The notes beneath the pieces were generated by a model. That model was given only the letters and a program-made list of their open reading frames with translations, searched no databases and was not told the origin of the DNA. Below, in pieces: positions 516-30,500 of a stretch of 64,000 nucleotides of DNA. The first letter of the stretch is position 1. The number at the start of each line of letters is the position of its first letter. A program made the position numbers and the translations under genes. Location: assembly GCA_021735655.1 (NCBI GenBank), contig JAIPGM010000001.1, positions 128,001 to 192,000 on the forward strand, written 5' to 3'. Origin of the DNA: Candidatus Omnitrophota bacterium. Lineage in GTDB: Bacteria > Omnitrophota > Gorgyraeia > Duberdicusellales > 4484-171.

Positions 516-3500
516 CCGCTTGATAATGGAAAATCTTTATCGAGACGTAGCTTTGGTTTTATGGTGACCGCTTTGGGAGTGGGGTCATTTTTGACTGTTT
601 GTTCTAAGTCCTCTGATTTGAAACCGGAAGGCAATCTCATTGGGACTGGACTCACAGTAGGATTAACTTTCGCTCCTGGATTAGGAAGAAATATTGGGGC
701 ATATGAGGAGACAGTATGGACTGATCAGGATGTTGAATTTTTATGCCAAGAAGCGAAATTGATCAGAAAATTATGGAATGTTCCTTTTGTTTTATTCTCT
801 GTTTATACTCCTCCGATTGCCGGTAGCAATTACGCTCAAAGTTATCGATGGATTAAGCAGATGCATGAAGCTGGAGTTCGTCTTTTGCCACATATCTCAA
901 ACTATGATGGTCGCTATCTTCCTTCACCAATCGATATTAATGCTTGGGGTATTTCTGGTAGGGAAAAGAACCTATACAAAGATTTTATTAGGGGTTTGTA
1001 TCATGAGTTTAGCTTACGCAATGAAGAGGGTATTTTTTCTGAAACTATTGTTGGTTGGAATGTTTTTAACGAATATGATTATTTAGCTGTAAATAATCCT
1101 AAATGGTTTGCCAGAACGGGCGAGATTGAGGGATTATTGCAGGGTCTGGATGAAGCTGGGATAGTTGATAATCAAGAAAGAACAAGGGTAATACACGGGC
1201 ATGTTATCGATAATATCCTTTTAGCTACAGAGGAAACAACTCGAGGCATTATTGGAGTCTATCAAGACCTAGGTCTTGATCCTAAGCCGATATATACAGT
1301 TTGGGCTGGATTGCCGACAACTGAACAGGTTGCTAAAGTTCCTTCTTTGACTGGTTGGTCATTTAATCGTTATGATAAACCAGGCCTGTTAGAATCTTTA
1401 GAAAATGCTGCTCAGATAGTTGGTGGTAAAGAAATAAATATCCATGAGATCGGGGAGAGTTCTCATGATGGAGAGGATGTTCAAGCGATAGAGCTGGCTA
1501 GAACATTAAATGAGATAGTTGGGGCAAGAGCAAAATTTCCGAATTTGCGTCACTTTATGTTTATGAGCGCTAACGATAATCACTGGAAACCGGAGCTAGA
1601 AAGCACAACAGCAGGATACCGAAGATTTGATAGACAAGGAACTCCTTTCTATGGTCAACATTGGGGATTGTTTGCGACAATATTTGATGATGATGGCAAT
1701 GCCATAGCAGTTAGGCCGAAGAAAGCTGTCGGTGCTTTAAGTGTAGAAATTAGTAAGCTGGCTAATGCAAATAAAGCTGGTCAGCCACTTGATAATGGCC
1801 GGGATAGCTCAGCATTAGGCTCAATTACTACTCGGATTAATGTTTCAGCCAATAACCATTCAGTACAATTACAGGGACATCAACATTTAGTGGTCATTGC
1901 TCCTTTCGAAGATTTAAATCAACAGGACAGAGCTACTTTAGATGAACTTCTTGAAACCAAACTACCAATTGGTGACTATGTATTTATCGGCGAAGGAACT
2001 TTTGGTCTGTTAATGGTTGCTAAGATGGCCCTGTTAAAAAATAGCGATATCCGCGATAGTCAGCTAGCCGAACATTTAGGAAATGTCATTGAACTGGCTA
2101 GCTTGATGAATCAAGGGCTTAGCTCAACCGGCTTAAACTTAGGTGAGCCTATAGCCGAGCATCTTAATCGAGTGGTTGAATATTTTCCTTTAACTAATAA
2201 TCAGCGGCTAATAGCCCTTATTCGTAATTTAGTGATAATGCATTATGGGGAACCAGTAATGTTTTTTACTCAGTTTGCTCAAGATCCCGGTCGCTTCCGA
2301 GGAGTTTATCTATCAACCCTTGCAACCAGTCCGGAGATCATCAACCAGATGGAAATACAATATCAGAGGCAAGTACCGCTTAATAACGGAAAAGATACCG
2401 CAAAATATGTTTCAACTAAAGCAGTAATCGTACTTGGTGTATCTGGTTCAGGAAAAACTACCTTTATTGATAATTTGCTTGATGATCGGCACGACCGTTT
2501 TATTTTCCCGCGACTTACTACTACCCGAAAACCACGCAGTGGAGAAACTGCTGATCGTTATCGAGTTTTTGTTAGCCAAGAATTATTTGATTCAAAAGAT
2601 CGGGCCGATCAAATGTTAATGGTAAGAAGGGGCCGTCATGGCGGCTATGCTTATGGGTTAGATAGAGGTAATTTGGATAGGTGCTGCGCCACCGGTAAAG
2701 CATTACTTTTTGATACAACTTCAATCGCTGGGGTAGAGCGAATAAGAGAAATTTTTCCTCAGGCTGAGGTAATCACGGTTATACCTAAATCATTCGATAG
2801 GCTCAAAATTTTAAGCGATGAGCAAATTAAACGTATTCTTGAGTCGCGAATGAAGACAAGACGCATGAGTAGGGTTGATACTGAAAAACGCCTTCAGGAG
2901 GCTGTAAATGAGCTTAAAAGATTTCCTGAGCTTAAACCAGAAGTGGTTGTTGTGAATGATTCAATTGATGACTTAGATGAAAATATGACTAGATTTAATC
3001 AGGCAGCCGTGGAGTTAGTTTCTAAAAATCAGCCGTTAGATAACGGAGTCGATGAAGCGCATTGGCGACACAATCTTGACTTAAAAGGTTTTACTGAATT
3101 TTCTGATGAATATATTGATTTTCTTAAGAGAGTTGATGATCGAGAGGCTAATGATGCCTTTTGGCAACCGATCGAAAGATTTAATCAAAGATTAAAAAGC
3201 AATAAAGCTTTAGCTAGAAAACTTTTAGATTTATCGCAGATAATGCTTGATCAGGAAGTTTCAGCTGCTGAGGCTTTAATTGAGGCCTTAGCGCAAGTTG
3301 ATAATCGTAATGATTCAGAAGTTGCCTTTGAACAGGTAATTGAACTAGCGGCAGTTTTCTTAAGAAGAAATTTTGACCCGAGGGCTTCGCTCATGCATGG
3401 AGTAGTGGCTATAGCCAGTGCGGCTAAATCAGCAACTGATTTAGAAAGTTGTTTGGCTCTTGCCTTGAACATAGCCGAAGATGCTTCTTGGGATTATCCA

Positions 3501-6500
3501 CAAATAAATTTTGCAATCCAGTTTGATATTCCTTTGATTGCTTTAGAAACTAATGATCCAGAGGTTTTAGCTACTCAGTTAGAGTTTTTAGTCAGCCGTC
3601 AAGGATATTCGCAAGCTCGAGCTTATGCCCGGACCCATTGGATGTATAATTTTAGAAGAAAAAATAGTTTTCGCACTACTGATTGTTACGAAGTTGGCCC
3701 AGATGGTCCAAATTGGAAAAAAGGTTATGTTCGCAGAGGATTAGTAGAATTAATTGCTTATAAAAGATTTATTAAAGCTATAGCTAGAGCACAAGAACAA
3801 GGATTAGGCATTGAATCTCGTATAGCTACTAAAGAAAAACAAGTTTATCGTGGTCTGGTTAGGGCTGAAACTCACAGTGATTCAGGCACCTATTATACTT
3901 GGGAGCAAGATTTAATAGTAGCCGTTTGCCCAGTATTTTTAAAAGAGACAGTAGTTTCTAAAACTGATCTGACCGGTCAATTTTTCCCCGGCTTATTAAG
4001 AGTCGAAAATGATCAAGATATTAGCTTATTAGATTGGCATGTTCAGCGTGTTGTTGGTCAATTCCAAAGTTGGGTTACACATAGGCATAGAAATTTTGAT
4101 CAATGGCCACGTTGTCGACGCGATAATTTATTGCTTGAAGCTTACTTACAGCACCAGATTTATGATACCTATAAAAAATTTGCCAGTATTTGGGCTCGGG
4201 CTTATCAAGAAGCATTCATTCCGCAAAAATATCCTAAGGGGAGTCAAAATGATAATCCAGTATATTTAGCTGCAGTTGAAGCAATTGCTTGGTTAGATCA
4301 GGTTGGTGGAGTTGCCAACGAGCAACGTTTGGCCAAGCTGGATGAGCTAGACGATAAACATCAATTAGGGAGATATCGAATATTACTCCAGAAAGCTTTG
4401 CTTGAACCTCAGACTACAGGAGTCTCGCAAGTAACTCAAAAAGTTATCGGAGAGGAAGGTATTTCTGGCAAACCTTTAGATAACGGGAGAGTAAATAAAG
4501 AAGAATTAGCGGTTACAGCAGTTAAAAGAGGGAACACCTCACCGTGGCTGGCGGGTCCCCTCTCTGCTGTAGCCCCTATATATATAGGTAAACAATCGCT
4601 ACCTTTGGATAATGGTAAGTCAATTCAAGAACAATTCATTGAAGATGTAATTGTTTTTTGGAAAGTTTGGGATAAACAATATCCTAGAGATATTGAATCT
4701 AGCATTTGCGTACTCGAAGGCGTAAAAGCTTTGAAAGCCAAAGGTTATATAGTCTATTCTGGCTCAGAGCATCAATTGAATATGGCAATTGCTGGTTTAT
4801 GGAGAAATGTTTCTGAAGATGATAAGTTTGCAATAAAAGAAGCTGTACGTTTATTGGCTGAAAATGTTAGACAACATGCTGACGATAGCGGAAGATTGAT
4901 AGCCTTTTTTGATCGTGAAGATGATGTGCTTTATTTAGCTATGGTTGATGTTGGTCCGGGATTTTTCCGTGATGATGAAGGAAGACCGGTTATTCGGAGA
5001 AAAGATGATCGGTTTGAACAACGTCCGGATTCTACCGGCAGAGGGGTTGGTTTAAAGTGGGTTTCAGATCAGGTAGATGATTTACAAATCCATACGGGTG
5101 GGCATGTTAGCCGACAGCCTAAACCAACAATTGAGTCCGATTCAAGGATAGAAGATCTTAAAGGAACTTTTGTTTTTACGAAAATAAATTTAGCCAGTCA
5201 AGCCAGGGAGCCTTTAGATAATGGTTATGGAGTTTATCAAGGCAGGAGACTATATCTAGCTGCTGATCCGGTTCTAAGTGGAGTTAAAAGTATTCGGCGC
5301 GTGAATTTATCAGGTCTAACCACCAAGAGACAAAAACACACTTTATTCACTAGACGAAAAATTCTCGATTTAGTGAGTGTCCATGCTTTAGCGGCGGCCC
5401 ATGGTTATTCTTGGTTAAATGATATAAATAATAGTTATGCTAAAAACCAAGCTGATGGTGAGGTTACTTATTGGTTTGAGGTTTATTATGCTATGCTTTC
5501 CTGGTTAAAGGGAGAAATTTATAATGCTGAAGGAACTCGCGATGAGGCACCTAGTCTTTATGTCGGCCAACACGTTGGGGCTGGATTTCAAAGTGATTTT
5601 CCAGAAAGAGAAGAAGCGAATGTAGCTATCGGAATTGATCCTTTAGAGGTAACTAACGGAGTAGTTTCAGCAAAATTTCTTGGTAGTACTGCTCCGGCAG
5701 TATACGCACCACGTGGTGGGATTATGAAAATAACCGATTTAGCTTATCTTTGGGCTTTATCGGTTGGTCCGGCCGCCGGAAATTGCGATTTAAATTTAAA
5801 CTACAGCGTTAGAAAAAATATGACTAATCTAGCAGCTAGTTTAGGTAAGAAAACAAGTCAGCTCAGAGGGGTAATGTTATTCAGAGAAAGGCATTCACGG
5901 GTTCCTTTGTTGCAATTGGTTGAAAGCGGAATGCAGATAGATGAAGGTGATTCAGAACTTAGAGAATTCTTAAATGAGGCCAAACGAATCGAGGATAAAG
6001 AAAAACAATGTCAGAAGCCAAGCCTGCAAGATTTTGATAGTTTGAAGCAGACTTACAAAGCTTTTGATAGCAAGGTTAAGGCAACTGGGGTTTATCAAAG
6101 CGGGAACCTTACCTTTATTGCTGACGGGAACCTTATGCCAGCTTTAGTGGCTTTAAAGAGAGGCTCGGCAGATTTTATTTTTGACTCAGGGGGAACTTCC
6201 GAAGGAATTATGGCTGCGGCTAATGTAAGGGCAATTGGTGGAAAAATGAGCGCCCGGATTGTGCCTTATCAGGCAATGGCTGAAGGAAAGCTTCAGGCAA
6301 ACTTAGTTAAAGATAAAGATAAATTTTTAGAAAATGAACTAGCTGAGCTAGCGAGATATGGTTTTTATCCTAAAACTTCAAGAAGAAAATTGCAGCGAGG
6401 GCAATATCGTCTTAATCATGTTTTTGATGCTACAGATTTAGTCAGTGCTGAAGAAGCAGTTTTCTTGGCAGCTCACATTAAAGATAGTCCTTGGGACAGC

Positions 6501-12500: not shown

Positions 12501-15500
12501 CTTAGCCTTGAGGGCCACGGTCCAGAGATAGATTTTGTACTTGAAGTTGATCGGGCAAAGTATCATCGTAACAATCAAGGGCAATATGGTAATTTAGATG
12601 AGGGAATTTATCTTGGTGAATCCAAGACATTTAATCGACAATTTAACTTAGATTTGGTTACCGAACATACAATTGATGATAAACAAAGCAAATATCGTTT
12701 AGTGGCCGCAAGGTTAAATAAGCTTCCCGATCCAGTTTTTAACGGCCGCATGAAGGGTATTGTTTTTGCTATGGGGGGAAGCTCGGTTACGGCAGCGGGA
12801 GTTCTAGAGTTTAGGTTAAGACAAAGAGAAGTGGATGAGGGATTAGAAACTTTGAGCTTAGTTGAATATGTAGCTTACATCCCGGATACTATTGATGCTG
12901 ACGAAGAGATAACTTTAAGTGTTAAGGAGGAAATTTATATTATTAAATGGGTAAGAGAGTTAGTTGAGCGGGGAGTAATTGAAGAAAATGAGGTTACCCG
13001 CGTTGAGCGTGTATTTATGGAAATAGCTTCAACTAGCAGCCGTTATGTATTACAAAGTATAGTTTGTGCAAAGTTAAGAGAAAAAACCGGGGAAGGTGAT
13101 ACTTCTTCAGCCAAGCGTCAGTCAGAACAAATTTGGCAAGAAATTATAGCTGAGCTAGAGGCTGAAGCTTTTCCAAATCGAAAACCACTTGATAACGGCC
13201 GCGATGGTCAAGCTGATTTAGCTCGTCAACAGTTAGCTGAAAGTTTGAGAGGGCGCTTGACCGGATTGCTAGATTCTGGTCTTAATCCGGAAAATAGCCT
13301 ACTTGTAACTCATGTTGGTCGACCGAATAAGGCTGGCACGCTTAGGGGTTTGGGTTTACGAGTTTACGAGATGGTTATTCAAGGAGTCAATAAACTTTAT
13401 TATGACCGACGGACTGTAAGAACCATCCCTTTATTTTCTAATAGTTTAGATTGTCCTTATCCTGGTGGTTATCATTCCCAGGGTGGAATGCTTACACCGG
13501 AGGCTAGGCAGGATATTGTTAGCCGGGGAGATGTTTTTATTCTAAGCGGAGGTGAGCTTGAAATATGCTTGCAGATGACTTTTAGCGAATTAATCGATGC
13601 TTTAAATCAAGCTGGAAGAACTACGGTGATATTTGTTCCGCTTGAAGCAACTAGTAGATTTATAAATTTAGAGTCGGCAACCGGCTATGCTGATTATTTA
13701 AAAAGCCGAGCGATAAGCTATGAAGAGTATGATTTTACTAAAAACGAGGTAACTCTAGCTCAACCGGCTACGCCACAGGTATTATTAGTTTGGACTAAGA
13801 CCGCTCAGGAAACTCTTTATTGGTTAGATTTCATAGCTAGGCATCAAAGACTTGTTGCTGAGAAACTTATTGAATCTTTGGGCTCAACTGAGGCAAATGT
13901 ACGTAAAGATGCCGCCGCTAGAATAATTACTATTGCTAAATTAATTGGTCACAACCAAGAAGATAATATATTTGGTCGTCATCCTTTAGATTGGCTTTAT
14001 GGTCATGATGACCATCGCCAGACTACGCCGCAAGAACGCAGGCTTTTATCGGAAGTTTCTTGGTTTCCTTCTGATGCTGTTCATCGAGATGAGGAGCAAG
14101 TACTTTTAACCAATCGCCGAAGAGTAAAAAGCAGAGTAACTGAAGTAAGAAAATCTTTAAGAAATAGGATTTTGTTTGACGTTAAGGCAAAATTGGAATT
14201 ATTAAAACAGCGTTTAGCTGATTCTGAAATTCAGGCTGCAGTAGATTTGGTAAGCTTTGGCTTTGATTCAAGTTTACCGGATCAAGGATCACGCAAGATA
14301 GCTGTTCTTAGAAAATTAGAGAGAAATCTCCAAGAGCTAACTACCCAGATAGAAAGGGCTAAAGCTTCTGGTAGTATTGGAGTGATAATTGTGCCTTTAA
14401 TTGATGAGGCTTTAAGTAGTCTACGGCGGCACGTAAATACGATTAGACATTGGTCGGATTATAAAAAAGGAAGCTATGTGCTTAGGCAGTTAGTTGATTG
14501 GATGGTTCGAAAGCATTTTGAGCCGCAGCATGCTCAATATCGGCAGATAAAATCAGCTAAAGTTTTGGGACGAGTCGATAACGGAGATGAAAAATTTTGG
14601 CAACTTCCGATTTGGCCGTTGGCTGATAACGGTGAGGTTGATTTAGGCTTAACTGGCTGGATGCTTACTTCGCGACAACGGGCTCCGCCAGAATATTTTC
14701 AAAGAAGAAAAGTTTCCCTAGCCGAATTAGCTGGTTTAAAACCAATCCAACTTACCTTATTTAATCTTGATGATTTTACTGGTTCTGGGCAACCCTTAGA
14801 TAATGGCCGAGTGCCTCTCGATAATGGTAAACCTTTATTAGAAAATAGAGATAAACCTAAAGAAACAGGCAGCCACCTTAGAGTAATGCTGGGTTTTCTA
14901 AGTCCGATCAGAGATGAAACCAAAATAGATGAACCCTTGAGTATTTCCGTGTTAGCTGGAGTATTAAGAGATGAGTTTAAGGGCACGGTAGACGTTGCCA
15001 CGGTCCACCCTCTTGTTGAAAAGGGAGGCCTTGAAGGGGTAAAGGAAAGGATAAGAAAAGAACAGCCGGACATCTTAGGATTATCTTTGTTTTTTGGTAG
15101 TTTAGATTATTTAAGAGAATTAATGGCTTATATACGTACTTTGCCAGAAGAAGTTAGGCCTTTAGTGATACTTGGCAATGTGTTGGCTAAATATAATTTA
15201 GGATTGATTTTAAAGGAATTTCCAGAAGTTGGAATTTGTACTGGAGAAGGAGAAAATACTATACGAGATTTTGTGCGTTATTACCGGGGGGAGATGGGTC
15301 TTTTGCAGATTACCAATTTTGCCTATATACATCAAGGGGTACCGAGAGTAAATTTACCTCAACAACGCACTGATTTGTCTGATATTGGAATGCCTCAGCG
15401 GGATATTTTTTCTCACGTCATCAGAACCGGCGGGGTCGTATTTTTAGAAACAAGCCGTTCTTGTTCGCATAATTGTGCAATGTGTAGTCGTAAGACTTAT

Positions 15501-18500
15501 TTGGAAGGAGCAGAATTTTCTCAAGTAGGTTGGCGTGGACGTCCGCTTGAGGATGTCATAAGAGATATGGCTGATGTAAGTCGTCAAGGAGCCAGATTTG
15601 TTAATTTCGTTGATGAAGATATTTTTGGTGGAGGCCTTGTACGGGTTATGGAGCTTGCCCAGAGAATTATTTTTGCTAAGGCACGAGGCGAGATTCATCC
15701 CGATTTAACCTTTGGCAGTTCAGCTAGCGTGAGATCAATCTATGTCCAACCAGAAGGTGATACTAAAGCTAGGGCTCAGATTGAAGCCGATAACGAGCTG
15801 AGGATAGAGGCACTTACAAGATTAAAACAAGCTGGCTTAGTGGTTTTATTTACAGGTATCGAGTCAGGTTCTCCTACTCAGCTTGCTCGATACGGAAAAG
15901 ATGCCACAGTATTTGAAAATGAAATGGCCTTACGGATAATCGATGAAGCAGGCATACACAATGTTCCTGGTTTTATTATGTTTGATCAAAAGGTCACAAT
16001 CGAGGAGCTGCGAGAGGATATTGCATTTTTACGAAGAACCGGGATGGATAAAAAAATTACCTATCCGCTTAGAACTTACTATCCTTTAAGGGGTGCTATG
16101 TGCACTGATCAACTGGTGGTAGATGGTCTTGTGGATGCAGAGCGATATAATGCAAGTCAGTTAGCCTATGAATACGTTTATGAGGATCAAGATGCTGCTA
16201 CTTTGTTGTGGGCTTTAAAATCTTGGGAAAAAAGCCAAATGCTATTCTTTTGGATTATTAAGATAATTTTTCGTTCTTCACGGTTTGGTGAGCTATCACC
16301 GGAGACACAAGCATTATTCAAAGAGGTTATGGCTGATCAAACTGTTATTTTACTTGATTATTTGGAAGATTTAGTTAATTGCTCATCAAGTTCTCAATAC
16401 CCAGAGATTGATCTTAGATATAGTGATAGATTAATAAATACCATGCTGTCTATTTTAGGCTTAATTAACGAAGGTCAGCTATCTATAGATGGCTCACATC
16501 TTTCGGAAGTTATTTACGGAAGCATAACCAGGGAAATCGTCCGTGTGCATCTTTTACATTTGCCATTTACTTTAAATGATATTTTTGAAATGGTAAAAGT
16601 AAGGTTTGGTGCTGAACTTAGTCTGCCTATGCTCAAGAGAGCTTTAAGCAGCTTTGTGAACGAGGGCGCTATGGAGTATTGTGAAGGCAGGTATTCATTA
16701 ACAGCTAAATTTTGGGATTTAAAAGGAATGCCTTATTATGATTTGCCAAGACCATACCGAGGAGGCGAATCTAACCTTGCTCAAGCGAGTTTACCAGTTC
16801 CACATCTTGATGTATTTAGGCAAAGAGCAGGCATTTTAGAGTTAGAGGTAGCTTATAACCAAGTCAGAGTTTTTGGGGAAGTATTATACGCTGCAGTTGG
16901 TTTTATCCTTTTTGCTATAGTTGGTGTTTTGATTATCCATACTTTGGCTGGAGGGTTTGTGGTTGGCTTTTTCGGATTAGTTATATTTGTTTATTTTTAT
17001 TCCAAATCGTTTCCTAAATCAAAATATAAAATAGTTGAGCAAGGGTTGAAAATGTTTAGTGGTCAAAGAATTGGTAGCCAAGATTTCATAAAACTATCTT
17101 TGGTGTTTAGGGACCTTTTAGCTGATGATTGCGATAATATAATAATACAACTTCTTGCTCGATCGGGAATCGAAGCAGCTAATGAGCTTGCCCAGAATAG
17201 GTACCTAGAGGAAACCTTGGGCGTGCAGTCTCCCCTTGATAATGGTAAAGATCCCTTTCTTACAGTCGATATTAGCCAATTGCCAGGAATGCTGTTAAAT
17301 AGAAATTATCAGAAAGCAATTGCAATATTTGAGAGCTTAGACGTTTTTAAAGACGGTGACGCTTTGAGAGACTTGCTTTCTGGCTTCAGGGAAATGTATG
17401 AAAATAATTACGATTTCAGGTCACGTCTTCTAGAATGTTTCATCCATTTATATGAAACCCAGCGCCAGCAGTGGTCTAAGGCCGAAAGAACCTTAAGGGT
17501 AATCTATGAACAGCAGACAGCTGAGGAAGATTTATCTTTGCTGTGGGTGAGGAAAATTGCCGTTGATATTTGGTCTGAGATTGCAAGTAGAGAGATAAAA
17601 CTTTCTGATGAACAAATGGTACCGGTTGAACAGGTAGGAGTTGATCTACAGGTAACTGAGGTCTGTTGCTATGAGTGTCCTTGGTGTTTATATCATCACA
17701 CGCCAAAAGGCCCGGCCCGGAGAAACCTTCACCGTTTAAGCGAAGCCGAGGCCGTAGACATAGTCAGTCAGTTTATGGAGGCAGAAACCTTTTCTTTGGC
17801 GCCGTTTAGTTTCACCGGCGGGGAACCTTCAATGAATCGGAAAGTTTTATTTGCTGCTCTTGAGGCAGCTACCCGACGTCAGCAAGCTGGATTTATTAAT
17901 GTATTTAGTAATGGTATTTGGGCTCGAGACGTAGAGGCTGCTGAGCGTATGCTAAACGCTCTTGCTGAGAAAGCAATCATCAGACTGGTTATCAATAGTG
18001 GGCTTTTGCCCGAAGGCCTTGAGCGGATTAAGCATATTGTTGACGCTTACGGCAGATTGGATAGTTCAATACAATACCGCATAGAACTTGGTATAGCCGT
18101 TCCTTTATTGGGCGATGAGATTATAACTTATCTTGAATCAGTGCGGCAAGCGCTTAAGGGAAAATTTCTTATTCAGCCGTCTAATGGCGCTATTACTGCC
18201 GTAGACATGTTTGAAATGTATCATTTAACAAATTGTAAGGTTGGTATTCAATTGTCTAATAGTCGTATTCTCATTATACATCCTGAATCGATTGCTATAA
18301 GTCATGCTAATAAGGGTCGCCTTGCTTTAAGAGAAAAGCAGATTGAAGCTTACCGGCTTAACCGCCCGGTTTGGTCGTCATGGCAAAGCAATGGGTCGCG
18401 CTATGTGCAATTTGTGGCGCAAAGTGACCTTTGGGTTTTAGCTAATCCTTTTTTCTGGGGCTATGGCAATCCTCGGCAGTGGAGTTTTGATTTTATGAAT

Positions 18501-21500
18501 GTTAGTCAGCTACATGAAGCCTATCAGCGTGATCCGCTTTGGCAGATGCTTTCAACTGTGCCAGCCGAGGAGATTATAGAACAAATGCGGCAGCTTTTTG
18601 TCACAGTCCCTCAGGGCGTTGATCGTTGGTTATCTGGTCTTCATGCGGTCCATCCGATTGCTAGCAGTTTTGCCGCTGAACTTTTACAGGATTCGCGCGT
18701 GCGTTATTGGCTAAGAAGATGGCATAGTGGTGATTCAGTTAATGAGCCATATCCGGAGTTATTGATGCCGGAATTAAGTCAAAAACAAAATTCACCTAAA
18801 TCAATTCCTTTGGATAACGGCCGAGTGCCTCTTGATAATGGTAAACCGTTCATGCAAAAGTTTAAACCTTCAGAAACTCTAGGCTATTCAGTGATTAACG
18901 GTCCTAGACATAGAGTGATGATTATTAATGTTTTGCCGCAAGATAAACAAGCTTCTTTAGAAACTCAAACTCAGAGCATAATTTCACAAGTAGATTCAGC
19001 CTTAGCTAGAGAGGGTTTTAATAATAGTGATGTGGTTAAACAGGATATGTTTTTACGTGATCCGAGCCAAAGACCCGAGGTTAAAGAAATGCTAGGTAAT
19101 TATTATGGAAGGGCGCCTCCGGCAACCAGTTTTATTCATCAGCCGCCGATAACCGGTGAGCTAGCTGCTACTGAATTGATTGTCATTAAGGGGGAGGGGG
19201 TCCAAGTCTACCGAGTAAATAAATATGCAACCTTAATTAATGCTGACGGACTTTGGATGCTTTATGTGGCTGGAATTGAACCGGATGCTAATTTAACTGA
19301 TACCTATCAGCAGGCCTATAATACTTTTTTAAAGTTACAGACTGTTTTAGAAGAAGTTAGGCTTGGCGCGGTAAGCTTTAAATTTGAAGATGTAATTAGA
19401 ACCTGGCTTTTTGAACGTGAGATAGTTGGTTTTGATGATCAAGAAAAAACTCAAGAGAGATATCAAAAGCTTAATCAAGCCCGACGCGTTTTATTTGATA
19501 CGGCTGATTCTGGATCAGGGGTTATTTTTGGCCGTCGTCTGCATTGTCCATCTTCTTGGCTTCTTTCCTGGCGAACGAGGATTGCTTTTTGGTTTTTAAA
19601 GTTTTCTTTTACTCATCGAATAAAGAAATTCGAAAAAATATTATTCAAATTAGCCCGAGTCAGGCCTCCGGCTTCAACCGGAATCGGTGCTTTGCCGGAA
19701 TTTCAAGCCCAAGGAATAAACGTTGCCATTGGTCCGGCTTTTGTTTTTGAAGCTTTAGCTTTGTTCGCTGAAAGTAATCGAGGCGATGTTTTAATTCAGT
19801 TTATTGAAAACCCCGAACAAACTCCGGCTCATGCTTATTCCAAAAAAGTATTACCCAAGGGAGAAAAGAAAAAGAAAAAAGCTTCCCCGGCTTTTAGCCG
19901 TGGTATGGCTGTATTTATGGATTACATTTGGATAATCATTTCTGGAACAGCTTCAGTTAAAGGTGAAAAGGTAGTCTCTGTTGGTGATGTAAGAGGTCAA
20001 GCTGAGACCACGATTGATAATTTAAGATTAGTAGTTGGTCAGGCTGGAGCCCAGTTAAAAGATATACCGCAATTAAGAGTGTATATCAAGAATTGGCAGG
20101 ATTATCAGACTGTAAGGTCGGTAGTTGAAAAGCATTTTCCCGATACTCCGGCCCTATATCTTTTGGCTGATGTCTGTCGGCCAGAGTGGTTAGTTGAAAT
20201 TGAAGCCATGGCTTTTATTCCTCGAGAAGAAGGGGTTTCTAAGCCTTTAGACAATGGTAAAAATAGAATTCGGCAAGGTGAGATCTGGTCTCCTCACCGT
20301 GGCTGGCGGGATCCAGCTCCCTTGCCGGATTATATATCTGTTCCGCTCGACAATGGCAAAAGAACTCTAGATTCATTGCCAACCAGACTCAGGGTTTTCT
20401 TAAGACTTAATAATATTGATCCAGCTAAAACTTATTTATTTGCCATGAGCGGCGGTGATTGTGCCGGGCCAAATTCAGCTTATTATGGTGCAGTTAGAGA
20501 GGCTGATAAATATGGTTATAAAGTATTAGGGGTGTTGAATGGTTTTGAAGGGTTAGGGGCTAATCCGGATTTATTCGTTGATCAACTTATTTATATTACT
20601 TCCGAAGGCATTGAGCGATTAAAAGGAATGCCGAGTATTCATGTTGGGTCTTCTCGGGCTAAATTTAAGGATAAACGCGAAAATATTTTAGTTAATTGCG
20701 CTGCTTTTGCCGGAGTAATTTTTGTTGTTGGTGATGACCATTCTAAGCAAACCGGCGAGCTAGCTGAAAGCGGCATAGCAACTATAGCTATTCCCAAAAC
20801 TATTGATTATGACTTTTTGGCGGAATCTTTAGGGTCACATAGTGCTATTTCTGAGGCCCGGCGACTTTACCTACGGGCTCATCGCATGGCCCAAGAGGAT
20901 CATTTTGTTCAAGTTATTGAATTTATGGGACGTGATGCTGGCTGGCTAACCTTTTTGGCAGCTCAGCAGGTTGCTGGAGCTAACTTTATTCTTCTCCCGG
21001 AAAAAAGCGCTGGCTTTAAGGATGTTTTAATTAAAGCTTTGTCAGTTATTTTAGAGGAAGGTTATTTGACTATCGCTATGGCTGAAGGTTATAGCTTTAG
21101 AGATTTCCAGGAAAAAGATCGTATCTTTGGAGGGCCGCTGTTTTATAAATTCTTAGATATTATACCGTTTCTTAAGGCTAAATTTTATTCTAAAGGCCAA
21201 ACCGATGTACATGGTAACCCCAAATTATCAGGAATAGCTGAGTACTTGTCTTTAGCTATTCGTTATTTGCCACGCTTGGCCAAGCATGATGCCGATATAA
21301 ATAGGCTTTATCAAGCGATTAAACTTAAGTACCCACATTATTTTGGTACTGACTTGCGTTATAAGGCTAAGGGCGAGGTAATGCAGAATGTTCGTTTATC
21401 GATTTTAGGCTATATTTTAAGAGGCCTTCCTTCAGATGATTACGATACTAGATTGGGAGAGGCTTATGGAAGAGCCGCAGTTAGGTTACTTCAGGCCGGA

Positions 21501-24500
21501 AAAAGCGGTTTAGAAGTTACAATTAGTAAAACTTGTACTTTGCGTTCATCTAGTTGGTTAAGAGCTATTCTTAGGGGGGAAGGGGTGAAAGCTGTTCCAA
21601 TAGTTGAGGTAGCCATAAAACAATATGTGGCTAAAAGCGATGATCCGGCTAAGGCGGCTATAGCTTTTCATCTTAGCGATAAGAAAATAGCTGAGGCCGG
21701 GGTTTGGTGGCAAGGCTCCCAAGAACTTATTACCCATAAAAGAGTAAGTCAGCTAGTCCGCGAAAAAGATTTAGGCCCGAGCCCGCGCGAACAGGCGCGC
21801 AGATCTCAATATAGCGCAGCTATTTCAGCAGCCATCCATACTACAACATCAATTTTCGGTTTTAGAAAGGTCGATGGTTTAGATTCAGATGATTTAGCTC
21901 TTTATGCTGGCGATCAAACTCCACGCGATAAGAGTTTGCTTCCGGGACATAAACAGTATTGCTTGGCTGAGACCAAAGGCAGTACCATGATTCTTTTAGC
22001 TAATCCTTTAGCGGAAGTTAGATCGCCTTATCTGCGTGATTTACTACTTGATATTTTAGGTAAGATGACTGAGCGTGTTAGTTTCATTGATGAAAGTACC
22101 CGAAGGCTTGTTCAACGTAAGATGCGTGGTTATGTTAATTTAGTAGTTTCCGATAAGTTTTTATTGAGAGATTTTACTGAATCGACAGATTTATTTTCAA
22201 AGCTCTTATCTTTAGATCCAGTATTAAAGGCTCGCTATGAGTTTAATCAGTATTTTTTCGATCACGGAACCCCGGGTTTTATGGAGCTAATGTGCACATT
22301 AGTTTCAGCAATTACTCACTTGCCACAACTAGCTCAAGGTGATCCAGAGTTAATTGATGCAGTTCAGAGACTTTATGCGAATCGACCAGAGGTGTTCGGT
22401 AAAGATCCTGAACGCAAAGGTGAACTTATCTTAAAAAGTTTACGCCTTAATATGCCCAATCAGGTTATCGGAAGGAAACCGACTCCTTTAAGAGAGGCTG
22501 ACCTGCGACGTAGCGGAGTTTGGCTAGGTCGTCAAAAGCCGCTTGATAACGGAAAAGCAAAAGTAGTTTTAAAGCCAGGAAATATGGATTACCATTTAAG
22601 TGTGGCGCGGAATACTCATTTTAGCAATGCTGCTTCCAAAATTGTTCCTTGTTTTTTAGATAATTTAGCTAAGGCTCAAATCAAAGGAATGCATAAAGAA
22701 ATTAGTGCGGTATTAGTCCATGACGATCAGGGGAATATTCCGATTTTTGCCTCGGCTGATCGGGCCAAGCTAGATGGTTTTGCAATTAATCATTCTTTGA
22801 TTGCTCAGGCTTCTGGTATTCAAGTAGATAGAGGTTTTGCTCGAATTGTGCTCTTTTTTAGAGTTGAAGATGAAAAAGCCGATAGTGTAGCCATATTTCC
22901 TAATTCTTTTATAGATAAAACTGAGTTACTTAGTAAAGATTTAGACATAGCTTTTAGAGCCAAAGCTAAATTATTCGGTGATTTTTCAAAAATTGCTTTG
23001 TTAATTAAGGAAGTCTTTCTCCAGATGGGTTATACTCCAGAGTATATTGACACGATTTGGCTTTCTAATTTTGATGGCGGGGCTTTCGGGTTTAGTAATC
23101 CACGGAAAAAAGTTAAGACCTTTGGCGATGCTTTAGCTTTGATTGAGTTGATGACTACCTTAGAGACACAGATACCTTTAGATAATGGTCGTAAGACAAA
23201 TGATGATCAAGCTAAATCAGAGGGTGTCAGCCGTCGCGATTTCGAGATTAGATCTCTTCTCGGTGGGCTTTGTGCCTTTTGTGGTGGAAGCTTGCCGGAG
23301 TTTGCCGGTGCTGCGGCTGGTTCAGCGGCAAGCCTATCGGAAATTCAAGCTAGACTTAAGGTAATGAAGTTATTTGAACAAGGAGTCAGAGATTTATTAA
23401 TTAATGGAGGTATAGTTGCTCGGCCAGCTTTTATCAGTCCAGCTGAGTGGGGTATTTTGAATTTTGATCTTTACCGTTTTAATTTAGTCCAAGTTATGGA
23501 TGATTGTGGTGGTTCTATGAATGCTGCCGAGCGGGTTGCTCAAGGGGTTAGAGACTTTGCCCAATACGTTAATGATCCGCGACTACAAAGATATTTTTCA
23601 CAGCAAGCTCGAGAGAAATTAGTTCAGCAGAGAAAGGATAACAGCCAAATTAGAAGAGAAATAGCTGATATCAAGATTTTACTTGAAATAGCTCGAGACG
23701 CCTACCATCACATGAGTTCGCCGGTAGATTTACCGGGAATAGTTAAGCAATTAGAATTTGAGTTATTTCTTAAAAGAGGGCAAGTCGGTTTTAATTCGGC
23801 TAGTGTTAAGTTGGAAGCTTTGTTGGTAGATAAAAATGATGAGCCTTTGGATAACGGAAGAACTATTGACCAGCAAAAAACTATTCTAAGGGAGCAGGTA
23901 CCGAGTCTTAGCGATAGAGCTCACTCAGCTAAACTCGCCGCAATTTATTCAAATCGTTTAAATGCTAAATTATCTGACAAAGGTTGGGGTATGCCCGGTG
24001 ATCTTAGGTTAGTTAAGGGAATAACCCTAACCGTAAACAGAGTTATTGCTCCTTGTTATGAGCTGTTTTTAAATATTATGCGTCACGGAAGGGGTGGAGA
24101 ATTTAAGGCGGATTATCGTCAAGGTTGGCTGGGTGAAAAAGAATTAACGGTTGTTGGTTTTGACCAGGGTTTGGGTATTGCTAATCCGGATCAGCTTTTC
24201 GCTGATAAGTTAGAGCTACTAGCTATTGCTGAAGATACAGCTGATTTAGACAAGAGGGAATTAAGTCGAGGAATTGTTCATATCGTGCTTGATCCGGACA
24301 GCGTGATGCTTGAAACCAGAGGCATAAGGTGGGCTAGGTCAATATTAGATGTTGAAGTTCGTTCAGGATTGTTTATGCCGGTAGTTACTTTGCAGCCGAG
24401 AGGCAAAAGTGAGGTTAATAAAGGTTTACGTTGGACTTTGGGATGGAAGAGGCAAGCCAGTCCTTTAGACAACGGCAGACAATCTCTGATTCCGGCTTTA

Positions 24501-27500
24501 GCTGCTGCTGAGCATATACCTTATGGAGAAGTAATCACAAAAATACTTGTAGTTTCAGGAATGATAATGATAGCTGTAGTAATGCTTAACTTTTTTTATA
24601 TAGTAGTTCGTATACTAATTGTCGAAGTAAATGATTTGATAAAACGATCCAGAAAGAAAACTAAGCCTAAGGGTCTATCGGCCTATGCTCGTTCAATGGG
24701 ATTATATTTTTTAAGACAAAGATCATCTGGCCTAGATAAATATTATGTCAAAGGGTCTTTCTCGCGTTTCTTTAGTGTAGATACTAATAAAAGAAAACCT
24801 AAATCTGGTCACGATAAACCGCTCGATAACGGAAAAGATAAAGACCAGAGTCCAGACAAGCGTATTCCGATAGCAAAATTATTACCACAGTTACTTAAAC
24901 AATCCCAGGCTGAGCTGTCTCAAGGTCCGCCTCATACAATTAGCCAAACCAGTGAAATATTAATGCGAGTTGGCGAGCTAACAGTGTCACTTAGCTACCT
25001 AAGAAGACAGTTAGGTATATATTTAAGAGCTAATCCTTCAGTTGAGATAACTCATAATATTTCTTCCGGTGGTTCAGTTCGTAATCACAGTGGTTTACTC
25101 CCTGGAGAAACCTTAATTGAGGTAAGGACCGCTGGGCGACCGACTAGATTAGTAAAAGTAATTCGGGTTGGTAGTTTTGGTTCAGAGATTGGCCTAAAAA
25201 GTCCTAGGCTCAGAGAATGGATAAATTCCCGATATCAAGAGTTAGCTGAGTTTGTAAACTTGGGCGATGAGTTTGAATGGAGAACTAAGAATGGTAGGCC
25301 GCGTTTGCCCGGTGATTTGTATCCGGGTTATGAAATTTTAGGATATCGAATGCTTAAAGATGGAAGGACCAGCGCTGATTTTATATTTATTTTTGAAAGA
25401 CAAAGCTCTAAGAAATTGAGAGGAGATGAAGGGTTAGTTAGATTAATGGTTTCTAATCCTAAGAACCTAAATCGACCGGTATACTTGGGAATGATTTGTC
25501 GCGATCCGAGATTTTTTGAATTAGCTGAGCGACTAACGACTGGTGTAACCCTTAGCGATATAGTAGCGACCCCTAAGGGTGAACCGCTTGATAACGGAAA
25601 GAATAACCCTTATTCTGATGCTGAAATCGAAGCTATGACTGCCCAGATAGCTCCTCAAGGTTTAGCTGAGTGGGATGAACAGATAGCGAGTTTAAGCTTA
25701 GCCGCTGAGAGTTTCTTGGAAACTGAAAAAGCAGTAAGAGATCATTTGGCGATGCTTAATCAACGCTTTGGTCCATTGGGAATTCGTTTCACTGCCACCC
25801 AGGTGGGTTTAGTTGCAATTATGAGTAAACCAGCAGATCTGGAACATAGTGATGCTTTACAGGAAGAGGTATTCCGTTACTATGAATTGGCTGAAGAAGC
25901 TAAACGGGCTCAAACTAACTGTCAGCAATGTCATAATAATTTATTAAATAGTTTTAGTGGTATTTTAGAACCGGCCATTAGTATGGCGGTTACCATCAGC
26001 CGGAGCCAAAATCGACCAGCTCAGTTTAATCAGCTTAGGAGTGCGATTATTGTTTCTCAAGAGCGTTGGCAGGCAGCTAAAGAAATTGAAAAAAGCTTAG
26101 CAGCTGTTGTTTTTGAGGGAGCATCTATCCATCTTCCGGAAACAATTCTTCCTCAAGGAGTAAGCTCTGAGGAAGCTGAGCGGTTGTTTAAAGATGTGTT
26201 CATCGATATTAAATCACCTTATCTAAGATTACGATTGATATCGCTTGATTTATACTTTTTATTGTTTCGTTTAGCTATCGGTACAATTGAACCAGTTCTT
26301 GGTTACAATCGGGCTTTAAGTTTAGCCCAGCGTGCGGCCACCCTTGAGAAACTTAACGAAAGACTTCTTCCAGAAAATCGCGGGGTTAGAGGAATACATC
26401 AGATTTTTGAATCAGCTAACGGCAATTTAGGTGAAATCAGAGCAATTATTGCTGAACGCCAAAGTCGGATAGTAGCAATTGATCAGCCAGCTGACTTATT
26501 AGCTTTAGATATTTTAGTTGCGCGAATTGAAGATGATTGTGTTTTAATGCAACGGGCTTTAAGTCTTGATAAAAGAGAAGCGCTACCGACTCTTGCACGT
26601 AGATTATTAAAATTAGCTGCTGATATTAAAGCACAGCGTCAAAGCACTCCGGTGGGTGCTGTATTCTCGGCACTTTTACCTAAGAACTCCCAGGGTAAAC
26701 AGAAAGAATCACCGACTAAACAGAATGCTTTTATTGTTGTTACCATGAGTGCTAACCAAGCTCCGATGGTTCACATTACTAATAAGCCGGCTGGTTTGCT
26801 GGATAATGAAGTTGGTCGGATTGCCTTTAGAGCCCTTGATTGTTTTAGTTGGCAAGATTTAGAAATTAGTGAAGGGGTTGATCGACTTAATTTATTAGGC
26901 GCACTTGGTCCGCTTAGTTATGGAATAACTCGTGAGCTTCGTCAGAAAGGTCTATTTATGTTAACCGGCGAGATATACAATTTGTTAAAAACGATAAGAA
27001 ATTTAGGCCGGGTTAAATTAATTATTCTTCCGAATCAAACAGCTCAACCTCAGGCAATACTTGATCTTGAGAGAACTTTAGAATTAGCTGATAGTCCTTT
27101 AGATAACGGCCGACCTTTGTCAGTTTATGAAGCAAATAAAAGGTTTTTTATGGCTTTGGGAGAATTAGTTCAGTGGCAACAAAGTTCACCAAAAAATTAC
27201 TGGTTTAAAAATACTGACCAGTTTTTGCAAGACTTGGCTGGTTTTCGTGAAAGATTTGAGGAATTAGTTGGTCAACCTCAGCTTGGAGAATTTCCTCAGT
27301 CATTAACTTCTTTGCTTGAAACCAATGAGAGGGTGGTGGGTGTTTTTCGTTACCAGTTTTATGCCGAAATTGAAGAGTGGCGAGATGAAGTTCTAGCTGT
27401 TCTCACCAATTTAGAAGCCGATAGCGGATATCTGTTTGAGGCAGTAACCGAATTAAAAGAGTTAGTTTCAATACACAAAGATAGTATTCTTCATTTTCAA

Positions 27501-30500
27501 ACCTTTATTGAGAATATAGCTAAAATTCAGAGTACTATAATTTCAGAGATAATGAGAAGGTTAATTCAAGTTGATGAGCGGCTCGATCAGTTACTTGAAC
27601 AAATTGAACAAGAAGGTTCAGAAGTTAGCCAAATTTTAACTGAGCTATCTGAGGTATTTTCTGATATATATGGTTTACATTTTGAAGTTTGTATAACTAC
27701 AGCTAGTCGTTATCTTACAAAAGGTAACGATTTAGTTAAGGAAATATTTCAATATTTTCTTGATAGATTAGATGAGGCGAAACCGCTTGATAATGGCCGA
27801 AGACCTAGGCGGCGTTCAGATAAAGGTGAAAGTAAGTGGGATATTTTAGATCGGTTTAGCCAAAAACTCAGAACTGTGGATACGGAAGTATTAGCGGACG
27901 TAGACCAACAAAGAAGCATTGGAGCTAAGAGAAGAATTTTAACTAGAATCGGTATAGATGAAGCTAGCCAATTAGACGGAGCTTTCTTGCTAGGCGCAGT
28001 TAGCAAAGCCTTAAAGCGCCAGGTTGGAAATTTAAGCCATGATTCAAGCCCGATTACCGTAACTGAGCCGCTTATTTATGCTGGAGTTGGTCGTTTTCTA
28101 ATTTGCTATAAAGATGAAAATATTGACGATGGCCTAGCAGTTAAAATTGCTAGCAGCGAAGCTTCTTTGCGTAATGCTGATCTTTATTCTTTAAACGGAG
28201 TCCGCATCGCCATTAATCGTTTAGGCACAGGCTTAGCTGCCAGCACAATGATTATTGATGCCCGTTGGCCAGAGGTTAGGTCTTTTGTTTTTAACGTTAT
28301 TGATCAAGCTGGACATCCTAGAAGGATTGAAACTCAAATCGCTATCGTCCAACAAAAAGTTTTACCGTTAATTGAGTATTTAAAACGTTTAGGTCGTCGA
28401 GGCTCTAAGGACCAAGATGTATTAAAGGCAATTACCTATGTTGATAAGTTTAAACAGCTTATAATTGCTATGTATAAACAAGGGGTTATTGATGATGATA
28501 CTTTTAATATTGTGGGAAATTACGGGATATTAAAGGTTAATGATAGTATTGTAATTTTTGATCTCGGTGATCTTTCTGATTCAGCTGATCGAGCTGCAGG
28601 TTTTGTTAGAAATTTAGATAGCTACAACCAACAGATGTTTGAAGCCTTTTTAGAAATAGACGGTGTTTTCCTTGATGAACGGATTGCCGATTATTTTATA
28701 AATAACCCGTTAAAAAGAGAAGATTTTATTTCTGGCCAAGGAGATCTATTCGGATCCGAATACGATCGGGAAAGTTCAAGAATGGTTTTCCCTTACGATG
28801 AGGAAACAGTAAGGATGTGGGGGGTTCGGGCTTTTGATTTAGTAAGCCCCGATACAGAGGCTAGCCAGCAACCACTCAATAATGGAAAAGCTAGGACTAT
28901 TTCTCGTTTTGAACAAGAAACTAGAACTGAGCCTTATCTTGTTCCTGAAGCTGAAGGCGTTGTATATCAAGCAGTGGCTAAATTTTTTAGAGCTAATGGA
29001 GATAGCCAGACATTTAGAGTTCTAGATCTTTTCAGTGGAGCCCATACCTATATACCGACCTTGAACCAAGTTCAGGTTGAAGAGTGTATTGGCGTAGGCA
29101 TAAGGGCGCAAGAGTTAGAATTGAATCCTAACTTAAAAGGTAACCCTAGCTACTTAGTTTTAGATTTAAATCAGGATAAGTTGCCTGAGCAGTGGAATCA
29201 GCGTTTTGATTTAGTCTTAGTGGTTAACGGGGTAGCTTACGTTGAGGATCATTTCAGATTATTTGCTGAGGCTGCAACTGTGACTAGACTCGGTGGCAGA
29301 TTATTAGTTGTTTTTACTACTGAAGCCTATTCTACCGAGATTTCAAAAACTTGGAAATATTTAGGTAGCGGTTCTTTAGGCCAGAGAAATAAAATTAGAC
29401 ATATTAGTGAATCAATAGCTAGAGTTCGCCAGTTTGGGCCTGTTGCCCATGGACATTTTACTTATACCATTCAACATGGCTTAGATATTTATGATAAGCC
29501 TTTAGAAATCATTACTGCGGTCAGAAAGAGTAGTGCTATTCCGCTCGATAACGGTAAAGTGCGTTTGCCGATAAGTCCTTTGAGGTTAGCTTCGTTAGTA
29601 ATAGTTCCCTGGTTTGCTATCGGATTATCGATTTATTTTGGTGATTGGTACGTTGATACAGTTAAATCATCGGATTTAAACGCAATGTTAGTTAAAGGGT
29701 TTTTAGGTGGTCTAGCTTGTGGTTTTGGGATGTATGTAAAGCAGACAATTAGTGGCCAAACCCTGAGCCGTAAAAATTTCGGAAAGATACTTCGTTGGAC
29801 TTTAGCCGGATCAATATATTTAGGTTTAATTGTTTTTGGTGCCTGGTATGGATTTTTGAAAGCTAATGTTCCCAGTGATGTTTGGAAGGTTATTTTAGAT
29901 ATAACTTTATTTTCAGCTTTCATCGGTTTACCGCTAAACTATTTAATTCAAAGATATATTGTTGACTATGACAGCTACCGTAAAAAAACAATTAAAAAGC
30001 ATATTGTTAATTATCTACGTCTTTGGATTTTTAATGCCAGCTGGTGGGGATTTTGGTTAGGCCTTTCTTGGTCACTTTGGCCGGATAGTATCGACCTTAT
30101 TGTGGCCAATGTAAGGATTATTTGGTCCGGCATATTTATTTATTATCTTAGTGAGTGGGTTGAATCTGGTTCAAGTAGTCTACAAGCGTCATCTAAACCA
30201 CTCGATAACGGCCATCAACCGCGTAAAATTATTTGGATTAATTTTGGTGGTTGGCGCGGCTATTGGTTTGCGGCAACCGGCATTGAAACTTTAGCCGGTT
30301 TTATTGAGAAAAATTATTCCGGCGAGTTAGAGCAGGAAGTTTTTTATTATAACCCTAGCCAGATTACTCAATTTAGCGAGCATCTAAGTCAGGCCTCAGC
30401 TGATTTTATTTGTTTTTCAGTTAATCCGATGTATTTTGATTTGGCTATGGATTTTGCTCAAGAGATTCAAGCTAGTTTAGAGGCTTCACCTAACACGAGA

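Follow-up and report, generated by a model that had tools for sequence, protein, structure and literature searches.

A giant Omnitrophota reading frame partitioned by PLDNG linkers: a candidate processed polyprotein with signal-like module N-termini

Introduction

Giant genes of Omnitrophota encode products of up to 147,000 aa, and whether such a product stays a single protein or is cut is a question posed both by West-Roberts et al. 2023 (bioRxiv 10.1101/2023.11.21.568195), who suspected cleavage and stated that the cleavage points were unknown, and by Nielsen & Lui 2026 (bioRxiv 10.64898/2026.06.07.730766), who read 'multi-enzyme metabolic cluster' giants as uncleaved and membrane-anchored and concluded from predicted topology that the metabolic enzyme domains of one giant are extracellular. 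Here, we analyzed a giant open reading frame (ORF) that is divided into modules by a pentapeptide linker, PLDNG, in a Candidatus Omnitrophota bacterium (GCA_021735655.1, contig JAIPGM010000001.1, positions 128,001-192,000, forward strand; these 64,000 nt are the window throughout). The words 'linker' and 'polyprotein' occur in neither of the two papers, and 'motif' does not occur in the 2026 preprint; our literature search found no paper on PLDNG in this sense, or on Omnitrophota with 'polyprotein' or 'twin-arginine'.

The window ORF is like other giants of Omnitrophota (Gorgyraeia) in exceeding 10 kaa, in its many enzyme Pfam families (sugar metabolism, family 1 glycosyltransferases (GT1), radical S-adenosylmethionine (SAM) enzymes and methyltransferases) and in its scattered transmembrane (TM) helices. 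Unlike the giants that we inspected, in which there is no repeated 5-mer, it has an invariant PLDNG(K/R) at each border and signals directly after it. With viral polyproteins (processed by picornavirus 3C, potyvirus NIa or coronavirus Mpro), the ORF shares mature-sized units, short and strictly conserved junctions and small spacer peptides; it differs in lying on a cellular chromosome, in having ~60 units that are metabolic and membrane proteins, and in that its processing is putative, with no cognate protease found in the window. MARTX toxins are likewise bacterial and multi-modular, and cuts in the unstructured linkers between their domains set the modules free; however, they use an inositol-hexakisphosphate-activated cysteine protease domain (CPD) with loose sites after Leu, and their effectors act in host cells, whereas in the window neither a CPD (C80) domain nor RTX repeats gave a Pfam match. 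Finally, Euglena and dinoflagellate plastid polyproteins (light-harvesting complex, RuBisCO small subunit) carry decapeptide linkers that are removed by a protease after targeting; these are eukaryotic tandem arrays of the same or related proteins with one targeting signal, whereas the window ORF holds ~50 different proteins with per-module signals.

Our preferred explanation, on which we are evenly poised, is that the ORF encodes a protease-processed polyprotein whose released modules use their own N-terminal signals. Somewhat more tentatively, ~50 metabolic, membrane and exported proteins may come from one polyprotein of >21,000 residues cut at at least 62 PLDNG(K/R) junctions, with signals that function only once it is cut; with similar reserve, the strategy would be virus-like gene expression for cellular genes and would supply the missing cleavage code of Omnitrophota giants. 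Through its invariant junctions and the signals at its would-be N-termini, the gene offers a concrete answer on whether and where at least one Omnitrophota giant is cut. If processing is true, this would be the first cellular bacterial polyprotein of such scale, the topology paradox of Omnitrophota giants would be resolved, and PLDNG would be a substrate motif for finding the protease and for splitting other giants before they are annotated or their structures predicted. Should processing be disproved, some other reason would have to account for why PLDNG is so strictly conserved.

PLDNG linkers partition a giant ORF

We found 21,011 stop-free codons in frame 3 of the window (3-63038, on the forward strand like all features below, with the stop at 63036-63038), compared with 1,588 and 2,528 stops in the other two forward frames. 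The 5' end runs off the left edge of the window, so 21,011 aa is a lower bound on its length. The ORF is tiled by at least 19 enzyme families and has ~14 hydrophobic segments. It is longer than 10 kaa, has many enzyme Pfam families and TM content and lies in an Omnitrophota genome, and it belongs to the Omnitrophota 'multi-enzyme metabolic cluster' giant proteins.

The initial annotation of this DNA had described a 21,000-aa fusion split into modules by a linker, and the translation bears this out with 62 junction motifs (58 PLDNG, 1 PFDNG and 3 PLNNG). As in a polyprotein, each border between units of the one ORF thus carries a conserved junction motif. From composition, only 0.016 PLDNG would be expected, against the 58 observed, and 1.3 one-mismatch variants of any kind would be expected by chance. 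The first linker lies at 516-530 (CCG CTT GAT AAT GGA). At the DNA level, the linkers read CCN YTN GAY AAY GGN, and they use all of the available codons (4/4 for Pro, 6/6 for Leu, 2/2 for Asp, 2/2 for Asn and 4/4 for Gly). Hence, since every wobble position varies, selection acts on the peptide and not on the DNA. A nucleotide-level signal (an overlapping stop/start TGATAATG, a recoding site or an RNA motif) was ruled out by the varying wobble positions and the six Leu codons.

The residue after the linker Gly is R in 28 cases, K in 24, H in 3 and another residue in 4, so that R or K follows 52 of 59 linkers. Over the 12 residues on each side, K, Q, S, R and P are enriched and Y, W, H, C and F are depleted; the residues upstream of the linker are not conserved. 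Three tandem double linkers, PLDNG-R[VA]-PLDNG, have their copies two residues apart (14793-14828, 18807-18842 and 36261-36296; the first two share 83% identity across 53 nt). Several short peptides of 11-38 aa lie between linkers, and the very short ones include peptides of 11, 12, 23, 24 and 28 aa. One linker-bounded peptide of 38 aa (..LAVTAVKR..TSPWLAGPLSAVAPIYIGKQ..) is present twice, at 4488-4601 and 36147-36260, with 85% identity as protein and 83% over 144 nt; it would become a free small peptide if its flanking linkers are cut.

Four linkers are degenerate (2376-2390, 28872-28886, 39534-39548 and 53082-53096), namely the three PLNNG, in which Asn replaces Asp, and the one PFDNG. The PLNNG motifs at 2376 and 28872 are domain borders, with a guanylate kinase core 8 aa further in the one case and a methyltransferase core further on in the other, and the motif at 2376 leaves a 214-aa unit. 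These degenerate linkers may be weakened or lost processing sites, i.e. stable fusions. Among known motifs, the sortase LPxTG, the N-glycosylation sequon D/E-x-N-x-S/T, the Ca-binding DxDxDG and the Rhs DPxGL were dropped because the linker does not match them. The double-glycine (C39) leader is a loose possibility, as the linker agrees with it in having a hydrophobic residue at -4 and a Gly at -1 but not in having Asn at -2.

We also noted that the first visible module (3-515) is a protein-L-isoaspartate O-methyltransferase (PCMT, E = 7e-15), and that the linkers of the ORF hold ~62 Asn-Gly dipeptides. Asn-Gly is the dipeptide most prone to succinimide and isoaspartate formation. The PCMT module beside these linkers may be a coincidence or may be linked to linker maintenance.

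Modules resemble individual proteins

Divided at the 62 motifs, the ORF yields 10 short peptides and 52 pieces of 60 aa or more. The median of these larger modules is 295 aa (interquartile range 206-530), which resembles the lengths of a proteome. By Pfam, the ORF includes PCMT, guanylate kinase, GlpX fructose-bisphosphatase, phosphorylase, PIG-L, RidA, phosphofructokinase (PFK), methyltransferases, two radical-SAM units (one with B12-binding), PNP_UDP, TreT/GT1, glycoside hydrolase family 77 (GH77), GT2, Bac_transf, Glu/Leu dehydrogenase, a pyridoxal phosphate (PLP) decarboxylase, GH100 and GT1. No Pfam domain match spans a linker in the stretches searched, many of which have internal linkers.

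Where a homologue of known length exists, the homologous core begins ~20-40 residues past the linker: residue 9 of GlpX pairs with module residue 47, position 5 of the PFK profile with module residue ~29, and position 14 of the B12-binding profile with module residue 36. For the paralogous modules 14 and 29, similarity begins 39 and 24 residues past their linkers. We found these two (14829-17231 and 30213-33035) to be B12-binding radical-SAM units that share 26% identity across ~390 aa. Compared with free-living homologues, many modules have roughly double the length (PFK 727 aa, GlpX 637 aa, PLP decarboxylase 753 aa), with extensions that are unannotated.

Module starts do not look like translation starts. 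A first Met within 40 aa occurs in 24 of 46 modules, which is chance level (47.5% expected), and Shine-Dalgarno-like sequences near module starts are rare; internal translation starts were ruled out on these two grounds. Taken together, the data support that the PLDNG-delimited units behave as former or actual independent proteins.

Module 1 combines a signal-like N-terminus with a glycosidase-like barrel

Directly past the first linker, nt 531-605 in the ORF frame translate as KSLSRRSFGFMVTALGVGSFLTVCS, in agreement with the initial annotation, which had reported a twin arginine, a hydrophobic core and a Cys at this position. This signal-like N-terminus (531-605) has the n-region KSLSRR (531-548) with the twin arginine at 543-548 (residues 5-6), followed by 19 uncharged residues, SFGFMVTALGVGSFLTVCS (549-605), in which the Cys at 600-602 is residue 24; the candidate export-signal segment following GK is SLSRRSFGFMVTALGVGSFLTVCS. 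We found no A-x-A site in this segment.

A second twin arginine lies in module 21 (N-terminus at 23190-23297), where SRRDF (23229-23243) is followed by 15 uncharged residues, SLLGGLCAFCGGSLP; this case (23229-23297) is beyond those of the initial annotation. SRRSFGF of module 1 and SRRDFEI of module 21 both agree with S-R-R-x-F and not with the L-K of the Tat (twin-arginine translocation) motif. The TATFIND-type rule asks that the twin arginine be followed by an h-region of 13 or more residues that is uncharged and moderately hydrophobic; module 1 has 19 (mean Kyte-Doolittle (KD) hydropathy 1.64) and module 21 has 15 (mean KD 1.33). Across the 21,011 aa, [ST]RRxF occurs only twice, at residue 4 of module 1 and residue 14 of module 21. 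Both are within 14 residues after a linker, where ~6% of residues lie, so that both would be so placed by chance in ~0.3% of cases.

The module 1 n-region looks similar to that of E. coli NapA, MKLSRRSFMKANAV (MKLSRRSFMK...). Like such Tat signals, it has LSRRSF, a Gly/Ala/Thr-rich stretch and 15-19 uncharged residues, 4-5 residues from the putative new N-terminus; unlike them, the segment is internal, has no initiator Met and has G-F after F rather than L-K.

Behind this segment, module 1 has a catalytic (beta/alpha)8 barrel (651-1784). In an AlphaFold (AF2) model made from the alignment of module 1 with its relatives (mean predicted local distance difference test (pLDDT) 75), the barrel starts at residue ~40 and residues 1-34 are unstructured (pLDDT < 50); in the alignment, the conserved domain begins at residue ~41 and N180-E181 and E306 are invariant across homologues. 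Foldseek with this model found clan GH-A glycosidases (GH1, GH10, GH30 and GH2) at 9-14% identity, and on this structural basis module 1 is a predicted divergent clan GH-A glycosidase. Hence, with ~40 residues outside the fold preceding the glycosidase, module 1 has the usual layout of an exported enzyme.

Relatives of module 1 are rare: we found seven among 1.84 billion representative proteins, the best with 41% identity. They are mostly within giant fragments of 1,651-4,631 aa, one adjoins a 10,788-aa ORF, and one (P0003) is a free-standing ORF with a hydrophobic segment at its N-terminus. A word-indexed homologue search with module 1 and the GlpX module found no match; we judged it too insensitive at ~35% identity because Pfam and PDB do detect GlpX.

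Hydrophobic segments cluster at module N-termini

Five further modules have an N-terminal hydrophobic segment, as judged here and below by KD hydropathy and positive-inside heuristics. Module 23 (114 aa; N-terminus at 24477-24623) has a single TM helix at residues 23-49 with the basic C-flank KRSRKKTKPK, and this +6 flank predicts, by the heuristic, an N-out/C-in orientation. Modules 28 and 46 are multi-pass membrane proteins: module 28 (214 aa; 29556-29642) has the n-region KVRLPISPLR and its first helix at residues 11-29, and module 46 (236 aa; 47742-47864) has its first helix at residues 21-41. These three are modules 24, 30 and 49 of the initial annotation, which was right that they begin with membrane helices, as each has a hydrophobic helix 11-23 residues past its linker. 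Module 58 (61365-61490), a GT1 glycosyltransferase that the initial annotation had not listed, has an N-terminal helix at 61422-61490 followed by the basic RMMKGK.

The remaining one, module 44 (46347-46532), is a PglC-like phosphoglycosyl transferase with a membrane helix at residues ~41-62. Its Bac_transf domain (PF02397; module residues 37-216, 46455-46994) scores 95.8 bits against a cut-off of 27, residues 32-218 align to residues 7-186 of PglC (8g1n), and its LDELPQ, with the catalytic Asp-Glu dyad, aligns to LDELPQ of 8g1n. One N-terminal membrane helix precedes the core and there is no further helix between it and the linker. Judged by its sequence, module 44 thus has both hallmarks of a PglC-type enzyme, the domain with the catalytic dyad and the single N-terminal helix. 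Like PglC-type enzymes, it combines this helix with the Bac_transf domain and LDELPQ; unlike PglC, it has ~25 extra residues before the PglC-equivalent start, a ~210-aa C-terminal extension and an embedding in a giant ORF. WbaP-type enzymes carry the PglC-type domain after four TM helices, and WbaP structures are also among the structure matches of module 44. Hence, a PglC-type domain needs no free N-terminus; the initial annotation, in which this was module 47 (46347 onward), was correct on the PglC likeness and the N-terminal helix and not on the need for a free end.

The position of these segments is not random. We found 15-mers with KD ≥ 2.0 within the first 60 residues in 5 of 47 modules, compared with 0.6 expected from interior windows (P < 0.0002), and with KD ≥ 1.8 in 6 modules (1, 23, 28, 44, 46 and 58), compared with 2.4 expected (P = 0.006). 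Among C-terminal 60-aa windows, a hydrophobic 15-mer occurs in none at KD ≥ 2.0 and in one at KD ≥ 1.8. Topogenic segments cluster at module N-termini beyond chance. The C-terminus of module 14 has a strong double hydrophobic segment (KD 2.9, aa 5621-5667), and this TM hairpin is the only strong one away from a module N-terminus.

The single helices of modules 1, 23 and 58 lie between ATP-, SAM- or NAD-dependent enzyme modules, with the module 1 h-region between the PCMT and guanylate kinase modules. Hence, by these heuristics, an uncleaved chain would put large enzyme blocks outside the cell.

Proposed processing by a protease and its alternatives

Five residues kept through full synonymous turnover, at the borders, within polar flanks and in tandem copies, argue that PLDNG is recognized by its sequence, most simply by a processing protease. 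We infer the cleavage, its scissile bond, the export route and the use of the signals as follows. PLDNG would be read by a sequence-specific protease, which may be encoded further upstream in the ORF or at another place in the genome, and through a cut at or beside the linker Gly each module would acquire a new N-terminus. In module 1, this end would be (G)KSLSRRSFGFMVTALGVGSFLTVC-S, with a short basic n-region, the twin arginine and a moderately hydrophobic h-region of 15-19 residues, and it would direct the post-translational export (Tat- or Sec-type) of the clan GH-A glycosidase. Modules 23, 28, 44, 46 and 58 would insert via N-terminal signal-anchor or re-entrant helices, and the kinase, phosphatase, radical-SAM, dehydrogenase and transferase modules would stay cytoplasmic. 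Such release of the modules would remove the paradox that enzymes dependent on ATP, SAM, Fe-S and NAD lie outside the cytoplasm, and export after translation, for example by Tat, would fit a product released from a polyprotein.

Several results weigh against this explanation. No peptidase Pfam was found at E ≤ 0.01 in the visible 21,011 aa, with the ORF extending upstream of the window. The Tat profiles TIGR01409 and PF10518 gave no match at E ≤ 10 to the N-terminal peptides or to whole modules, in a search where HMMER filters may drop very short, weak matches. A canonical lipobox is [LVI][ASTVI][GAS]-C at the end of the h-region, and module 1 has LTVC there, with Val at -1 instead of G, A or S. 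Thus, of the Tat or lipoprotein-type signal named by the initial annotation, S-R-R-x-F and the uncharged stretch stand, and the Tat profiles and the lipobox do not agree; the sequence facts are firmer than the labels 'Tat' and 'lipoprotein'. The helix and topology calls come from heuristics and not from a trained predictor. In bacteria with Aat/ClpS, an N-terminal K or R would be a secondary N-degron and could thus destabilize a released module. There is no repeated 5-mer in the module 1 homologues P0001-P0006, in the neighboring giant ORF at locus L004 or in the syntenic giant ORF of locus L007, and searching genome, viral and metagenome collections with the double-linker DNA pattern found nothing related: the matches were by chance, in high-GC actinobacteria, plus one unrelated contig. 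Moreover, P0001 and P0005, which are in giant fragments, carry internal signal-like segments without PLDNG (an h-region and then AEA or AHA, 149 and 325 aa upstream of the GH-A domain). Hence, internal signals are not unique to the linker system, and they may be a general trait of Omnitrophota giant proteins.

The initial annotation had reasoned that internal signals imply release of the modules. Their unit-like nature and the clustering of topogenic segments at their N-termini agree with this, and the signals of P0001 and P0005 without a linker do not. The signal recognition particle (SRP)/Sec route can use internal signal-anchor helices. Hence, only the Tat-type argument truly requires a free N-terminus, and Tat tolerates N-terminal extensions in thylakoid bipartite presequences.

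This bears on the main alternative, namely that the product is an uncleaved, membrane-threaded giant, whose post-linker helices are internal signal-anchor or TM segments inserted co-translationally by SRP/Sec/YidC and whose PLDNG is a hinge, docking or modification motif. We consider this unlikely, although it has a serious claim: it agrees with the internal h-regions with AEA or AHA of P0001 and P0005, with the absence of a protease from the window, with the internal function of the PglC domain in WbaP-type enzymes and with the reading of multi-enzyme giants as uncleaved and membrane-anchored (Nielsen & Lui 2026, bioRxiv 10.64898/2026.06.07.730766). However, a passive hinge needs neither five invariant residues through saturated synonymous change nor tandem copies, and the helices of modules 1 and 23 would leave ~8,000 aa (including Gmk, GlpX, radical SAM and PFK) outside the cytoplasm. 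In addition, the ~15 hydrophobic residues of the module 1 h-region are signal-like and not TM-like, and the N-out orientation predicted from the basic flanks of modules 23 and 58 is impossible with a long upstream chain.

Separation might also proceed without a dedicated protease, by 2A-like ribosome skipping at DNG|K/R or by breakage at Asn-Gly via Asn cyclization. The linker is short and self-contained, no protease is seen in the window, and the established succinimide chemistry of its terminal Asn-Gly together with the isoaspartate methyltransferase as first visible module would fit the second route. We nevertheless consider both routes highly improbable, as the 2A consensus D(V/I)ExNPG|P is not matched (there is no Pro after Gly), 2A requires eukaryotic ribosomes and a conserved upstream nascent chain whereas the upstream residues here are not conserved, and the Asn-Gly succinimide leads mainly to deamidation, with known Asn-cyclization cleavages requiring a surrounding fold. 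That the signals are fossils, left in modules captured from free-standing genes and no longer used whatever the linker does, is also improbable. The lost initiator Met and Shine-Dalgarno signals, the chance-level position of the first Met, the negative Tat profile searches and the degenerate lipobox speak for it; yet the linker synonymous sites are fully scrambled, so the fusions are old, and the hydrophobic segments are still intact and uncharged. They also sit on fitting modules, namely a glycosidase, a PglC-like transferase, multi-pass membrane proteins and a GT1 anchor.

Genomic setting

Directly downstream of the giant ORF, an ABC substrate-binding protein gene (SBP; family SBP_bac_5; 63079-64000) starts with an ATG of its own and encodes a classical signal at the N-terminus, MKAINGFFLVLLLLFQPFLTYAEC; it provides an internal control and a taxonomic anchor for the window. 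Identity to its best homologues is 54-73%, and where these are named, most come from Candidatus Omnitrophota/Omnitrophica metagenome-assembled genomes (MAGs).

We compared the SBP neighborhood at loci L006, L008-L012 and L007. In MAG GCA_021735145.1 (L007), an ORF of >7,445 aa directly precedes the same SBP gene, and it has no detectable similarity to the window ORF. On five other Omnitrophota contigs, tpiA-secG is directly upstream of the SBP gene and there is no giant ORF; pgk, in two loci also gap, is further upstream of tpiA-secG where the contig reaches. These results suggest that giant genes were inserted or expanded at the SBP locus.

Finally, GC skew is positive throughout the giant ORF (0.09-0.21 in each 2-kb window over 1-63038), and Met is scarce in it, at 1.6% of residues.

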